From contig OX638151.1 in assembly GCA_951804945.1 (NCBI GenBank), positions 80,476,001 through 80,540,000 on the forward strand: a stretch of 64,000 nucleotides of DNA, given 5' to 3'. Below, one piece after another: positions 4,405 to 55,955 of the stretch (positions within the stretch are counted from its first letter, which is position 1; every line of letters begins with the position of its first letter). Under the pieces are notes generated by a model. The model saw nothing but the letters and a program-made list of their open reading frames with translations, did no database searches and had not been told where the DNA came from. Both the position numbers and the translations under genes were made by a program. Origin of the DNA: Podarcis cretensis. Lineage: Eukaryota.

Positions 4405-5044
4405 AAAAAAGGAAGTTCCCAATAACAGAAATACTAAACTTGTAGCACATACATTACCACAATACCCAGCATTCTCTAGTAGAGAAATATTGTCAAGGAA
4501 TCATCAACATTAGCCCAAATCCAAGCATTTGATAATCAGGATTTTGTTATCAGGTGCATGATAGATCATTAGGAATGTAAAGTTAGGCCCACCACGTAGA
4601 TACCAATGTGCACACTCCTGTCGGTGCCAGCCAGAAGGTGGCCGATGGGTGCGTGAAGGTGTTTAAGTTGATCTCCTTGCACATGGTCATGAACCATGAC
4701 TGACCAGAGTTCATGTGCCTGTGAGGAGCCCTTCATCCATACATGGGTATGTCCTCTTCATGATGACACTGATTGCATGTCAGCTAGAGATTGTGGCAAG
4801 TATCCTTGAGGGAAGGGGAGGACAGCCTTCAGGCTTACTGGATCTACTTTGCTATTTAATAGAATCCCAAGATCTGCCAACCAGAGCCAGCTGCTAAAGA
4901 CATACAGTTAGAATTAAACAGCATAAAGACTCTGAGTGCATTTTGAGTCCAGGCTGGCTTTCTTCACTTCAGCAGACTAATTTTGGTGAGGAAAGATGTT
5001 CTGTTGTCACTGTTGTCAAACAATTTGGAGACAAAAACTCTTGT

Positions 5045-5460
5045 CAGGATCTACTAGTAGATTCCAATGTACTCAATGTAATCTGCTCTATGTAGGGCTT
5101 CCCCTGGGATTGGTGCTGAAGTTGGAGCTGGTGCAGAATACTGCGGCCATCTAGAGGTGCACCTCTGCTGAGGGAACTGCACTGGTGACCAGTCAGATCC
5201 AGGACCATGTTCAAGGTCTTATTGTTAGCATATAAAGCCTCAGACAACTTTGAATTAAGTTACCTGAAAAACTGTACAGACTTGTACATCCAGGTAGATC
5301 ATCTACTTGGAGCACCACACTCTGCAAAATATGTTAGGACAGTGAAAACTGGAATTTTTTGGTGATGCCCTTGTACTGTGGAATGTCCTTCATTTTGCCA
5401 CTAGTTACTTCAGACATCTTTGAAAGACTTATATTTTCCTGACCCACAAGATTGGACCCT
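5045..5460 (+). mobile_element. Degraded L2 LINE 3' ORF2 fragment
   Basis: Remnants resembling [14 protein letters not shown]...LELVQNTAA...LHW.PVRSRTMFKVLLLAYKA, homologous to the L2 at 14251. Confidence 0.7.
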
Positions 5461-31524: not shown

Positions 31525-32534
31525 CCGTATTTTTCCTTCTATAACACGCAGATTTTTTCTTCTAAAAAGGAAGGGGAAATGTCTGTGCGTGTTATTGAGC
31601 GAATGTGTGGTCCCTGGAGCCAAATGACGCGAGGGGAGGCAAAAAAAATCAAATCGCGTGTCTCAGAGAAGGGAAACCTGAAAAGAGGAAGCGGCTGCTT
31701 TCCGGCATTCTGCCTCAGGGTCTTACTGCCCACCCACCTCTGTTTCCTTGCTGTGTTTGCTCAAACGGAACAAAGAGCAGGGAAAGCCCCTCCCCTCCAG
31801 GCAAGCAGAAGGGAAAACATGCAAGAGGGAGAGAGAGAGAGAGAGAGAGCGCGAGCTGGCTGGCTTGGGTGGGTAGGTGAGAGAAAACTTTTGCCTTCCT
31901 TTCCTCCCTCCCAGTTATACCCCTCTCCTGCATTCTTAGCCAGCTGCTTCTCTGCACACCCCTCTCATGCTCCTTGTCCGTTCTGTGTTTTTCCTTCCCT
32001 CCCCACTTAAAATGTGGTTAAAAAGCATGGATCCACATGGATCCTCAGGATCTTTGCATTCGGTCACCCCAAATTCACCATAAGATCACATAGCATGTCC
32101 ATGGCTACAGCCTGCCCCCCAAAAATCACGCACCCACTGTTGCCTGGGGCTGCAATGGTGCAAAAACGTGGTTAAAAAGCATGGATCTACATGGATCCTC
32201 GGGATCTTTGCATTAGGTCACCCCAAATTCACCATCAGAGCACATAGCATGTCCATGGCTACAGCCTGCCCCCCCCCAAAATCACGCACCCACTGTTGCC
32301 TGGGGCTGCAATGGTGAAAAACGTGGTTACAAACCATGGATGCACAGGGATTCTCAGGATTTTTGCATTGGGTCACCCCAAATTCACCATCAGATCACAT
32401 GTCTGTGGCCACAGCATGAAGCACAAAAATGATACATCCACTGTTTCATTCAGAATGTTTTTTCCCTTGTTTTCCTCCTCTAAAAACGATGTGCGTGTTA
32501 TGGTCAGGTGCGTGTAATAGAGCGAAAAATACGG
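31525..32534. mobile_element. Non-autonomous Tigger/pogo-like DNA transposon with an internal tandem array
   Basis: 26-bp TIR CCGTATTTTTCCTTCTATAACACGCA versus CCGTATTTTTCGCTCTATTACACGCA (3 mismatches). TA TSD at 31523-31524 and 32535-32536. Confidence 0.88.
32011..32400. repeat. About 154-155 bp tandem repeat, about 2.5 copies, inside the transposon
   Basis: The unit (T/C)GTGGTTA(A/C)AAA(G/C)CATGGAT starts at 32013, 32167 and 32322. Confidence 0.9.
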
Positions 32535-50166: not shown

Positions 50167-51616
50167 GACTATACCTTCTGACTTTTTAAAACACAGGCTA
50201 TTTCAGATTACCATAAAGGACCACACATCCTGTGGACTTAACCCCTTGACTTAACTCACAATGAAAATAAAGCCTAGAAGTCTAGAACTGAACTTTTTCA
50301 GTTGTGCAGTCATTCATATATCTGCAAACTTTTCCTTGTGAAACCAAAGTATTTGGATTATTCAGTTCTTTTCTTTTTTTCTCCAGTGATTTTAGCTCTC
50401 ATTCCATGACTGTATCAATAAGGTTTTGAAAGGAATTTGATGTTCTATCCATTGGGAATAAACCATGGTTGAGAAATGCAGTGGGGAAAGACCCAGTGGA
50501 GGAAACAGAAAGAGTTAAAATTCATTTAAGGGATTTTTTTGTTTTGTTTCTTTTGCCGCAAAGCCTGGGATGAAAACGGAATAATGTTGACATCTCAAAT
50601 GCACCAAGACCATTGAAACATCTGAAACCAGAAAACAGAGGTAGAACGCAACCACAGTAAAGGTTTATGTTTCACAATTGTTTCTTGAAGTCTCTGCTGA
50701 CTTTGCTCACTACATTCCTGTGTTCTTGGTGATTTTCTCCCCCATTATAGATTTTTTAAAGGAAGTTTATTCCCCCAGGCCATGGATTCTGAATACTGTT
50801 TCCTTATGAATCTGGCCTGCTTCTACAGTGCAGCCTCAGACTCCGGATGGGAATAACATTTAACACCCATTACTTTTAATATACCGATGAGTTCATACCA
50901 GCAGGAAATTTGCACAACTTCTGGAATACCTTTACTCAAATTCAACTACTAGTGAAGGAATGTTTATGGATGTGGTTTCTCAACTGTGAAAACTGCACTG
51001 GACCCCGGAAATAAAAATCAAAGACCATGCTCTGTGCCAGAGTATAAATTTGTCCTACTGTTTCCAAACCCTAGTTACATCCAAATGAATAACAATTAAA
51101 CAGGAAATACTGAATGTACTGCATATTCTGTAAGGCACATTAGGCTATAGTCATCTGGCTTTCCCCTCCCAACCCCTTTTCCTTTTGTGCTGTCCCATCT
51201 AGATTTTACACTTAAGGACAAAGTGTGTATTCATTACAGATATTTTTAAGTTGCTCTGAAACCCTCTTTTTTGGGGGGGGGCTGAACAGTGGGATAAAAA
51301 TACTTTAAATAAATAACTACAGTGGTACCTTGGGTTACATACGCTTCAGGTTACATACACTTCAGGTTACAGACTTCGCTAACCCAGAAATAGTACCTCA
51401 GGTTAAGAACTTTGCTTCAGGATGAGAACAGAAATTGTGCAGCGGCAGCGCGGCGGCAGCAGGAGGCCCCATTAGCTAAAGTGGTGCTTCAGGTTAAGAA
51501 CAGTTTCAGGTTAAGAACAGACCTCCGGAACGAATTAAGTACTTAACCCGAGGTTGTTGTTGTTTAGTCGTGACCCCATGGACCAGAGCATGCCACGCAC
51601 TTGTGTCTTCCACTGC

Positions 51617-52051
51617 TGTCAGGGAACTGCCATCGGAGCCAGAGGGAGAGGGAGGGCTCCAGAGGGATTACGGAGAGCGTCCTAGGAGGGAGAGAAGCAG
51701 CCCATCTTTTGGGGAAGGAAATCAGCGTAGCACCAGTGGAGAAGGGGGGCAGATGGGGGAATCAGCAATGTGGCTCCATGACTCCTCGCCGGAGACCAGT
51801 GGGGAGAGCACGGGTCCTCTGCTGCCCACACCCTCCCTGCGCAGAAGGCTTCCACACAGGGAGAGTAGGCGGAGACTAGGCGTCAAAGAGCTTCTTTGCT
51901 GGAAGAAGTTCAAGAAACGCCCACTGACGGATTCTGCCAGCGACTGAGACAGCCACGGGTGAGTGGCTGTCCGGACAGAATAGGGTTCACCGAGGTAACT
52001 CAGCCAGGTGTGGCGATGACTTATGCACGAGCAACCCCTAGAACTATTACA
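51617..52051 (+). repeat. 5' LTR (435 bp)
   Basis: Begins TGTCAGGG immediately after the TSD. Its last 70 bp (51982-52051, ending ATTACA) align with 54411-54480. Confidence 0.9.
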
Positions 52052-52104
52052 GCAATCCGTCAGTCCCTTACGTTGCTTGTGCGCAGCCCCAGAGAGGCAG
52101 CACG

Positions 52105-53122
52105 ATGAGCCGAACAGGGACAGCCAGAGAGACGGAGCAACCAGCTACAATGCAGAGTCTGGTAGAGAGGAACCGAGACTTGAAACAGCATGTAGCTGTC
52201 CTGACGGCATGGCTGGACGAAAGACGGGCTCAGGATGCACAGGTCAGACCCACCCCCATCTCAAGGAAGGTACCGGGGCTGGTACACAAGTTTGGTGGGA
52301 AGCTCCAGGACTACAATGCTTTCCGAACAGAAGTACAGTACGCTTTGGAACTGCAGAATGATGACTTTGCTGATGACGGGGAGAGGGTGGCTTACATTGT
52401 GGGGCATCTGCAGGATGGGGCGCGCGAATGGATCAGGCCCCTAATGGCGACGCAAAATGATGCCTTGAAGGACCTTAAGAAATTCTTCCAGACAATGGAT
52501 GCGAGGTACTCCAGCGAAGTGGAGCAAAGTGTGACTCGGTGGGAACTGATGGGGTGCAGGCAGGGGAGCCAGTCCATCAGAGACTACTGGTCGCGTTTTG
52601 CGATGCTCATCCACTGGCTCGGGTGGGATCTGGACTCTGAACCGATACAAATGTTTGAGGAGGGTCTGTCCCCAGCAGTGAAAGACGAGTTGTCCCGCGC
52701 ACCCCGCCCACGGTCGATGGATGAGCTCACCAAGGCTGCGCTTGCTATTGGCGTACGCCAGGAAGCGCGGGCTCAGGAGAAGCGCGAAGGGAGAGGGGAA
52801 CGTTGCCATGACTACCGCATTCCTGAGATACCGAGACAGCCTTCCCAGGCGGCGGAGCCAATGGAAATTGATGGCGTGCGAGAGAGGTTTCAAACTCCAG
52901 TGAAGGTCGCAAAAGGGAGGGAAAGGAGTGGAAAACTACCAATAAGTGTTTCCTCTGTCAACGACCAGGACATTTTGCTAAGGTCTGCCCTCAAAGAAAA
53001 GCCTGGCAAGGGATGGTGGGGGCTGCTGGCTGTGAGGAGAAGGGGGAGGAAGGGCAGGCACAGGGAAATGACAACGCCTGGCTGCCAATCAGCAGGGGCA
53101 GCAGCCAGGCCAGCAACCAATA
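52105..53122 (+). pseudogene. gag: Gypsy gag (PEG10/sushi-like capsid and CCHC zinc knuckle), frameshifted
   Basis: KFGG...ERVAYIVGHLQDGAREW...RQGSQSIRDY...FEEGLSPAVKDEL...AEPMEIDG. The zinc knuckle KCFLCQRPGHFAKVC (CX2CX4HX4C) starts at 52944 in a different frame, which ends at TAG 53120-53122. Confidence 0.9.
53063..53110 (+). promoter_or_regulatory. -1 programmed ribosomal frameshift signal at the gag/pol junction
   Basis: Slippery heptamer G GGA AAT (53063-53069) in the gag phase, a 6-nt spacer, and a perfect 10-bp stem GCCTGGCTGC (53076-53085) / GCAGCCAGGC (53101-53110). The protease is in the -1 frame. Confidence 0.8.
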
Positions 53123-53125
53123 GAA

Positions 53126-54410
53126 GTGCCCCAGCCTGACCCTCCCAAGGCAGCTATAGCCATAGAAGTGGTGCTAGAACTCCCAAATGGGCACCCCGTC
53201 AAAGTTAAGGGGCTGCTGGATTTGGGAAGCTCATGTAATTTCTTCAGCAGGGACTTCGCTCTGGAGCACCAACTCCACCTGCTGCCCCTAGATTTTCCCT
53301 TGCAAGTGACCACCATCGATGGCAGGGAACTTCTGGGGGGGGGGAGTGACACACCAGACCCTGCCAATGCAAATGAGGGTGTCCAGGCACACGGAGACCA
53401 TTGCCTTTCACGTGGCCACACTGGCAGGACCCCCAATAATACTGGGGATGAGCTGGCTGGCACTACATGATCCAGTAGTGTCATGGCATCAGCGGTCAGT
53501 CACCTTAGGGTCAGCTTACTGCTTAGAACACTGTCTGGGAGGGGAGAACCCAAGAATGATGGTGGCCAGAGTGGCTGGGCTGGCCGTGGAACAAAGAGGG
53601 GAGGTGCCACCACAATATGCTGACCTTCCTACCACAATATGCTGACCTTCAGCGAGAAGGAGGCAGATAGACTACCCCCCCAGGCCCCTTGACTGCCAAA
53701 TCAACTTACTCCCAGGGGCTCAGCTGCCGGTGGGTAAGCTGTATGCCATGTCCGACCGGGAGATGCAGGAGTTGCGGCAATTTATTGACAAGAACCTGAA
53801 GCGGGGGTTCATAAGGGAATCAAAGGTGGTGGGGGACAGTCCGGTGTTCTTTGTGGACAAAAAAGAGACTAATCAGCCCAGATTAATCGTGGATTACCGG
53901 GCATTAAATCTGGTGTCAGAACCCGTGACCTTCCCAATGCCCAGGATTGACGACATTTTAACACGGGTGAGGCAGGGGAAAATTTTTACCAAGCTGGACC
54001 TCAGGGGAGCGTACAATTTGATTAGGATAAAGGAGGGGGACGAATGGAAAACTACCATGTTCACCCCGCTAGGGGCTTTTGAGTACGTAGTCATGCCATT
54101 TGGATTACAATCGGGCTCCGCCTGCTTTCAAGCATTCATGCACCACGTGTTGGGACCCCTGCTGTACAAGAATTGCGTAGCCTTTTTGGATGACGTCTTA
54201 ATCTATTCGGACAATGAGAAGCAACACGTCAGAGACGTCAGGGAAGTACTACAGAGACTGCAGAAGTACCAGTTGTGGGTCAAGCTGGAAAAATGCCAAT
54301 TTCACGCCAGAGAGGTTGAGTTTCTGGGGTACAAGGGCCTAGCTATGGACCCAAGCAAGGTGATGGCAGTGCTGGAATGGAAGGCCCCCAAAACCCGGAA
54401 GGATGTGCAG
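53126..54410 (+). pseudogene. pol: Gypsy pol: aspartic protease and reverse transcriptase, frameshifted and truncated
   Basis: Protease GLLD(L)GSSCNF...IILGMSWL. RT motifs PRLIVDYRALN, KLDLRGAYNLIRIKEGDEWKT, MPFGL, FLDDVLIYS, KLEKCQF...VEFLGY. It ends at KDVQR where the deletion joins the LTR remnant. Confidence 0.93.
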
Positions 54411-54480
54411 AGGGTTCACCCAGGTAACTCAGCCAGGTGTGGCGACAACTTACGCATGAGCTACCCCTAGAACCATTACA
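54411..54480 (+). repeat. 3' LTR remnant (70 bp)
   Basis: 63 of 70 positions are identical to 51982-52051 by manual alignment. Confidence 0.9.
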
Positions 54481-54835
54481 ACTGCCTTCCGCACTTTGGC
54501 CAGACTCATGCTGGTAGCTTTGAGAACACTGTCCAACCATCTCATCCTCTGTCATCCCCTTCTCCTTGTGCCCTCAATCTTTCCCAACATCAGGGTCTTT
54601 TCCAGGGAGTCTTCTCTTCTCATGAGGTGGCCAAAGTATTGGAGCCTCAGCTTCACAATCTGTCCTTACAGTGAGCACTCAGGGCTGATTTCCTTAAGAA
54701 TGGATAGGTTTGATCTTCTTGCAGTCCATGGGACTCTCAAGAGTCTCCTCCAGCACCATAATTCAAAAGCATCAATTCTTCAGCTATCAGCCTTCTTGAT
54801 GGTCCAGCTCTCACTTCTATACATCACTACTGGGA

Positions 54836-55536
54836 AAACCATAGCTTTTACTATACAGACCTTTGTTGGCAAGGTGATGTCTCTACTTTTTAAGATGCTG
54901 TCTAGATTTGTCATTGCTTTTCTCCCAAGAAGCAGGCGTCTTTTAATTTCATGGCTGCTGTCACCATCTGCAGTGATCATGGAGCCCAAGAAAGTAAAAT
55001 CTCTCACTGCCTCCATTTCTTCCCCTTCTATTTGCCAGGAGGTGATAGATCCAGTGGCCATGATCTTCGTTATTTTGATGTTGAGCTTCAGACCATATTT
55101 TGCTCTCTCCTCTTTCACCCTCAATAAAAGGTTCTTTAATTTCTCCTCACTTTCTGCCATCAAGGTTGTGTCATCTGCATATCTGAAACCATAGCTTTTA
55201 CTATACGGACCTTTGTTGGCAAGGTGATGTCTCTACTTTTTAAGATGCTGTCTAGATTTGTCATTGCTTTTCTCCCAAGAAGCAGGCGTCTTTTAATTTC
55301 ATGGCTGCTGTCACCATCTGCAGTGATCATGGAGCCCAAGAAAGTAAAATCTCTCACTGCCTCCATTTCTTCCCCTTCTATTTGCCAGGAGGTGATAGAT
55401 CCAGTGGCCATGATCTTCGTTATTTTGATGTTGAGCTTTAGACCATATTTTGCTCTCTCCTCTTTCACCCTCAATAAAAGGTTCTTTAATTTCTCCTCAC
55501 TTTCTGCCATCAAGGTTGTGTCATTTGCATATCTGA
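54836..55536. repeat. 350-bp tandem duplication inside BovB
   Basis: Copies start at 54836 and 55186 (AAACCATAGCTTTTACTATAC...). Three substitutions were found by manual comparison. Confidence 0.95.
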
Positions 55537-55955
55537 GGTTGTTGATATTTCTTCCGGCAATCTTAATTCCGGCTAGGGATTCATCCAGCCCAGCCTTTCG
55601 CATGATGAATTCTGCATATAAGTTAAATAAGCAGGGAAACAATATACAGCCTTGTCGTACTCCTTTCCCAATTTTGAACAAATCAGTTGTTCCATATCTA
55701 GTTCTAACTGTAGCTTCTTGTCCCACATAGAGATTTCTCAGGAGACAGATGATAACCCGAGGTATCACTGTACAAATGATAATATTATGCAAGGGCAGGC
55801 AGAGTGGTTCAGATTCTAAACTTTCAAAGTTGCCATGTCCAGACTCTAAATTAAAAGCCAGAACCAAAGTAACTGGTATACAACACCACATATTTTAAAG
55901 CAAATAACAGATAAAATTGATTTCAGTTATTACTATTTTTTTAAGTCCTAGGAAT

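Follow-up and report, generated by a model that had tools for sequence, protein, structure and literature searches.

How is reverse transcription primed in a lizard Gypsy element whose 5' LTR is not followed by TGG, the letters expected of a tRNA primer-binding site (PBS)? The question is raised by a copy in a 64,000-nucleotide stretch of Podarcis cretensis DNA (assembly GCA_951804945.1, contig OX638151.1, positions 80,476,001 to 80,540,000 of the forward strand; the window, from whose first letter coordinates are counted). An earlier note on this DNA had pointed to complementarity between the letters beside the LTR and letters inside it and had proposed that the family self-primes.

The window copy and its family

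The element occupies positions 51617 to 54480 of the window, on the + strand, between target-site duplications of 5 bp (51612 to 51616, with the identical five letters at 54481 to 54485). Its 5' LTR of 435 nt (51617 to 52051) begins with TG at 51617 and ends with CA at 52051, and a 2-nt spacer, GC (52052 to 52053), separates it from the PBS. The coding region that follows is damaged throughout: gag (52105 to 53123; Retrotrans_gag, 7e-11; zf-CCHC, 2e-5) is broken by frameshift, with the CCHC knuckle in a different frame, the aspartic protease region (53075 to 53645; Asp_protease_2, 2.5e-4, below the cut-off) is frameshifted, and reverse transcriptase (RT) (53649 to 54410; RVT_1, 1e-32; best PDB matches Ty3-type RT, 1e-46) is truncated by an internal deletion. 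A putative slippery site at the gag-pol overlap (53063 to 53069) reads GGGAAAT here and GGGAAAC in many relatives. Of the 3' LTR, the final 70 nt are present (54411 to 54480; 63 of 70 identical to the end of the 5' LTR). Compared with a fuller copy that is 95% identical, about 2.7 kb is missing before 54411, including RNase H, integrase, the chromodomain, the PPT, and most of the 3' LTR; this deletion, which starts at the end of RT and stops 70 nt short of the 3' LTR end, leaves the window copy dead. TG...CA LTRs, a target duplication, and the order gag-PR-RT-RNase H-IN (the last two domains in fuller copies) identify a Ty3/Gypsy LTR retrotransposon.

Fuller copies are about 5.6 kb long, are flanked by 5-bp target duplications, and encode RNase H, integrase, an SH3_Tf2-1 domain, and a chromodomain. 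The chromodomain (PF00385) scored 36.8 bits (cut-off, 25.1) in one copy with 95% identity to the window copy, where it lies at the integrase C terminus, as defines a chromovirus, and 15.2 bits, below the cut-off, in a second fuller copy. The sole PDB match of Gag was PEG10 (4e-5), with a weak match to DUF4939. In young copies pol overlaps gag in the −1 frame, and the heptamer at the overlap was GGGAAAC in 9 of 16 copies scanned and GGGAAAC or GGGAAAT in 5 of 7 copies scanned; GGGAAAC is the slippery heptamer reported for PEG10 (PMC10570562). This anatomy appears to be that of the vertebrate V-clade/sushi chromoviruses (Tf1/sushi group), a placement made without a tree of reference elements. 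No AATAAA or ATTAAA was present in the 14 LTRs scanned, those of the window copy and 13 related LTRs. In one fuller copy (L031), the chromodomain is followed by an acidic tail, repeated in part (4970 to 5295), and the frame continues into the 3' LTR.

The element is nested in an antisense LINE (51555 to 51616 and 54486 to 55760, − strand, by RT match), which we take to be RTE/BovB-like, and contigs of other runs cross the empty insertion site. Within the LINE, a 300-nt tandem duplication (54836 to 55135 and 55186 to 55485; 99% identical) is either a recent duplication or an assembly artefact. A further repeat with internal short repeats (51324 to 51553), presumably a non-autonomous DNA transposon, lies just upstream of the LINE tail, and three tandem units of about 155 nt each are found elsewhere in the window (32009 to 32429).

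The predicted primer:PBS match and its conservation in close copies

The letters after the 5' LTR (52052 to 52064) are GCAATCCGTCAGT. We verified, letter by letter, the match described in the earlier note: the PBS (52054 to 52064), which lacks TGG, is the exact reverse complement of 51923 to 51933, the predicted self-primer (RNA nucleotides 1 to 11), and neither 11-mer has a second occurrence in the window. The description of the match as exactly 11 nt long holds for the uninterrupted match but not for the helix, which, beyond a C bulged on the inner side, can gain 3 more pairs with the LTR end. On the outer side, the letter that follows the PBS and the one that precedes the primer are both C and so cannot pair. 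All 41 copies of one set had C at the position after the PBS (52065 in the window copy); in another set, 1 of 20 copies had G. The primer:PBS helix alone was calculated at −16.0 kcal/mol (−19.3 kcal/mol with the 3 extra pairs), and 2 of these 3 extension pairs were present in all 24 aligned copies. When the LTR was shuffled with its dinucleotides preserved, 5 of 5,000 shuffles matched the 20 nt after the LTR over at least 11 nt; among 116 zones of 20 nt inside the element, no match was as long as 10.

Conservation was assessed in the 30 best DNA matches, a set that includes the window copy and in which two rows are a duplicate pair. LTR start and end positions were identical in all 30 copies, and 30 of 30 read GCAA after the LTR instead of the TGG whose absence the earlier note had remarked on; a further set of 41 rows likewise had no TGG there. 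All 11 pairs were kept in 20 of the 30 copies, and a pair was broken in 10, of which 7 involved a CpG change. In a pooled set of 92 selected and partly redundant rows, 21 were not fully paired, and CpG decay can explain 17 of these.

Covariation, predicted transcription start, and RNA structure

Divergent copies were sampled at 20 loci around SH3_Tf2-1 matches (RT 72 to 90% identical where matched). Nine of these loci had an 11-nt match, six had a match of fewer than 11 nt, four were without an LTR pair, and one was mis-paired; among them were subfamilies with different primer letters and the corresponding letters in the PBS. Genome-wide, copies were counted with patterns in which the flanks were fixed and three positions were free per side, and 656 copies matched. 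With 8 of 11 primer letters fixed by the patterns, divergent copies that do not pair cannot show up among these 656. With the primer letter scored as A or non-A, position 5 agreed with its PBS partner in 654 of the 656: the primer letter was non-A in 465 copies and the partner non-T in 465, A stood with T in 190 copies and with non-T in 1, and by subtraction 464 copies were non-A with non-T and 1 was non-A with T. The first 30 non-A loci, which were unselected for the three free PBS letters, were all 11/11 complementary, in three versions (24, 4, and 2 copies). At position 7, where compensatory changes were likewise seen, just 4 of the non-A copies with A there lacked the partner T (denominator, at most 465); this position lies in a CpG, where old copies can acquire double changes by chance.

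Copy counts overstate the number of events because the copies are related. In a tree of 48 copies from which both 11-mers had been excluded, six fully paired versions of the variable triplet fell on separate supported branches, and roughly 5 to 8 independent paired changes were counted by eye on this tree; at least six distinct fully paired primer/PBS versions exist in the genome. Seven of the 11 pairs are invariant and hence uninformative. A scan of all columns in 24 chosen copies singled out two column pairs, both in the primer:PBS helix, as the only ones to combine 100% pairing with three Watson-Crick types. Across the named structure, 97.6% of 551 cells were paired in these 24 copies (24 to 35% in slid registers), and 30 cells were changed on both sides, against a shuffled mean of 7.7 (0 of 500 shuffles; this control ignores relatedness). 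The comparison of copies that the earlier note had proposed came out in its favor: the pairing was kept and covaried across subfamilies. Paired substitutions that have become fixed in several subfamilies within a single genome carry more weight than one complementary match. Two candidates were dropped along the way, L052, a chance match outside any LTR, and a pairing of the first LTR bases with the leader (8 nt, 2 loci), which was absent from other subfamilies.

The pairing begins at the A of an initiator-like CCCACT (51920 to 51925), and this A, 51923, is the predicted +1 and U3/R boundary. CCCACT fits the human initiator consensus BBCA+1BW (PMC5287114); a degenerate motif of six letters is weak alone, and its value would lie in its coincidence with the first paired base. 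A T/A-rich box (51892 to 51897) occupies −31 to −26 relative to the predicted start; this putative promoter element reads TTTTAT or TCTTAT in most subfamilies and TTCTTT, with no TAT, in the subfamily of the window copy. A search for copies cut exactly at the primer A, as retrocopies marking the start, gave 0 matches and was uninformative. The covarying pairing predicts an exact transcription start, and, with LTR pairs 99 to 100% identical in some copies, it may be feasible to capture the ends of native RNA and cDNA.

Folding of the RNA from 51923 to 52070, also proposed in the earlier note, gave a molecule closed by the primer helix (z, −2.66; 1 of 200 shuffles as stable). Within R/U5, a local hairpin (51948 to 51971) with a 5-pair stem was predicted across 24 copies, with two columns changed on both sides. 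A second stem, chosen by eye from the same 24-copy alignment, pairs a U5 arm (52025 to 52034) with a leader arm (52073 to 52082) and crosses the primer:PBS helix, which makes a pseudoknot; 95% of its cells were paired and 4 of its 10 pairs showed changes on both sides, whereas one pair was unpaired in 7 of 24 copies. Its energy in the window copy was −14.4 kcal/mol. A candidate third duplex amounted to at most 2 to 3 bp of invariant pairs.

Probable self-priming, its alternatives, and known systems

Since the PBS is complementary to 11 letters of the element's LTR and covaries with them, the family very probably dispenses with a tRNA and starts reverse transcription from the 5' end of its own transcript. 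The self-priming proposed in the earlier note is supported by the missing TGG, the conserved and covarying pairing, and the anatomy with its chromodomain and PEG10-like Gag. Covariation shows that the bases pair but not to what end, and we keep a small probability for a reading in which selection does maintain the pairing, yet the RNA begins at another site, a co-packaged RNA or the R copy at the 3' end provides the primer, or the helix is needed for packaging or dimerization and not for priming. The start at 51923 is a prediction, and the helix may run to 13 or 14 bp, in which case the cut site known from Tf1 need not hold; against this, the helix sits exactly at the position of a PBS, two bases past the LTR, and starts exactly at the initiator A, with the T/A box 31 nt upstream, and no alternative primer candidate was found.

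Priming by a host tRNA, a tRNA half, or another small RNA, with an incidental match to the LTR, is less probable again, even though most Ty3/Gypsy elements use a tRNA (PMC6317226, PMC5006619). Without TGG, no mature tRNA CCA end can pair with the PBS. The comparison with tRNAs that the earlier note had called for used a partial set (63 candidates scored in the Rfam search; 42 genes from 20 stretches, with 20 anticodon types, used), and in these 42 genes complementarity of any part to four PBS versions was at most 6 nt. A host primer would moreover keep the PBS constant, and a fixed one is hard to reconcile with six PBS versions that each track their own LTR.

A short DNA inverted repeat without an RNA function, its two 11-mers homogenized through template switching or gene conversion, is the least probable reading: the transversion shared by the 5' LTR primer site and the PBS of L035 and L036 could postdate insertion, but old copies decay one-sidedly at CpG and are left uncorrected, amplified subfamilies that number hundreds of copies have the paired versions fixed, and no other primer site is present. 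L035 and L036 (also sampled as L006 and L007; G000:C16, about 16 kb apart) are a tandem duplicate of one copy; their 3' LTR keeps the common letter, a pattern that calls for two parental RNAs or for a conversion that took place once the element had inserted.

For self-priming itself, a sequence of steps can be proposed. Pol II would start at the A at 51923, and nucleotides 1 to 11 of the RNA would fold in vivo onto the PBS two bases beyond the LTR, with the U5:leader stem crossing the helix. An RNase H cut near nucleotide 11, by analogy with Tf1, may then liberate a 3' end, which RT would extend through the GC spacer, U5, and the remaining R; integrase would trim the 2 extra bases. During plus-strand synthesis the primer would be copied back into the PBS, so that the two sites stay in step and paired changes could arise at one stroke; the Tf1 primer is reportedly not removed, going by the title of Atwood-Moore et al. 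2006. The window copy itself is without RNase H and integrase, and the mechanism concerns the family.

An unlikely extension of this scheme would be a vertebrate variant of self-priming whose primer, still capped, remains attached to the cDNA and is copied together with its cap into the PBS. Primer and PBS would then change together as a self-correcting unit, transcripts would end without AATAAA, and young high-copy subfamilies would offer the first amniote system in which this can be read from native RNA and cDNA. One idea is that copying of the cap G could account for the unpaired C after the PBS.

Self-priming has been demonstrated for Tf1 and implicated from fungi to vertebrates (PMC4600332), self-primers are described in yeast and vertebrate Tf1/sushi elements (PMC6317226), and self-priming is called a common feature of the Tf1/sushi group (bioRxiv 10.1101/2022.12.06.519325). 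In Tf1, RNase H makes the primer by cutting the RNA after nucleotide 11 and before nucleotide 12 (PMC7175516). For the vertebrate relatives, self-priming is "implicated" or predicted in the sources cited here, and the bench proof is in the fission yeast Tf1; the earlier note had called Tf1 self-priming established and that of vertebrate sushi elements proposed. The present finding is well supported, is one expected for the Tf1/sushi group, and adds no new kind of system. Self-priming has reportedly been ascribed to vertebrate sushi elements since 2001 (Butler et al. 2001), in work that may already cover reptile elements. New here are the primer/PBS covariation, the paired versions on separate branches, and the second covarying stem; our search, which was thin on subscription literature, found no report of primer/PBS covariation in a reptile (lizard) family.

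Self-priming was predicted for the Tcn1 clade (fungi and non-seed plants) and for Tj1 (S. japonicus) from a complement of at least 10 nt within 0 to 5 nt of the LTR (PMC6317226), and the present family has such a complement; Tcn1 and Tj1 have other hosts. Tf1 (Tf1/Tf2 of Schizosaccharomyces pombe) differs in several respects. It is described as having a single ORF without CCHC (bioRxiv 10.1101/2022.12.06.519325), whereas the family here has a CCHC Gag and a gag/pol overlap in the −1 frame, and its self-priming is proven by experiment, whereas ours is predicted from sequence. In the Tf1 "pretzel," side duplexes join PBS-adjacent sequence to LTR sequence downstream of the primer (bioRxiv 10.1101/2022.12.06.519325), and here, likewise, a U5:leader stem crosses the primer helix; the pretzel has three duplexes, and we find one long side stem and an extension of 2 to 3 bp. 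Members of the Tf1/sushi group outside fission yeast have a gag-pol −1 frameshift, which the −1 overlap and putative slippery site would match. A further difference from Tf1 lies in the spacing of the PBS, which adjoins the LTR directly in Tf1 and follows a 2-nt spacer here. The family also resembles the vertebrate sushi/V-clade elements, in the vertebrate-type host genome, the chromodomain, the PEG10-like Gag, the putative GGGAAAC-type slippery site, the TGT...TACA ends, and the self-priming signature. V-clade elements are reported from fish, amphibians, and amniotes (PMC2774666), and the LTR model of sushi has a clear AATAAA (PMC3601003), which sets it apart from the 14 LTRs of the lizard family.
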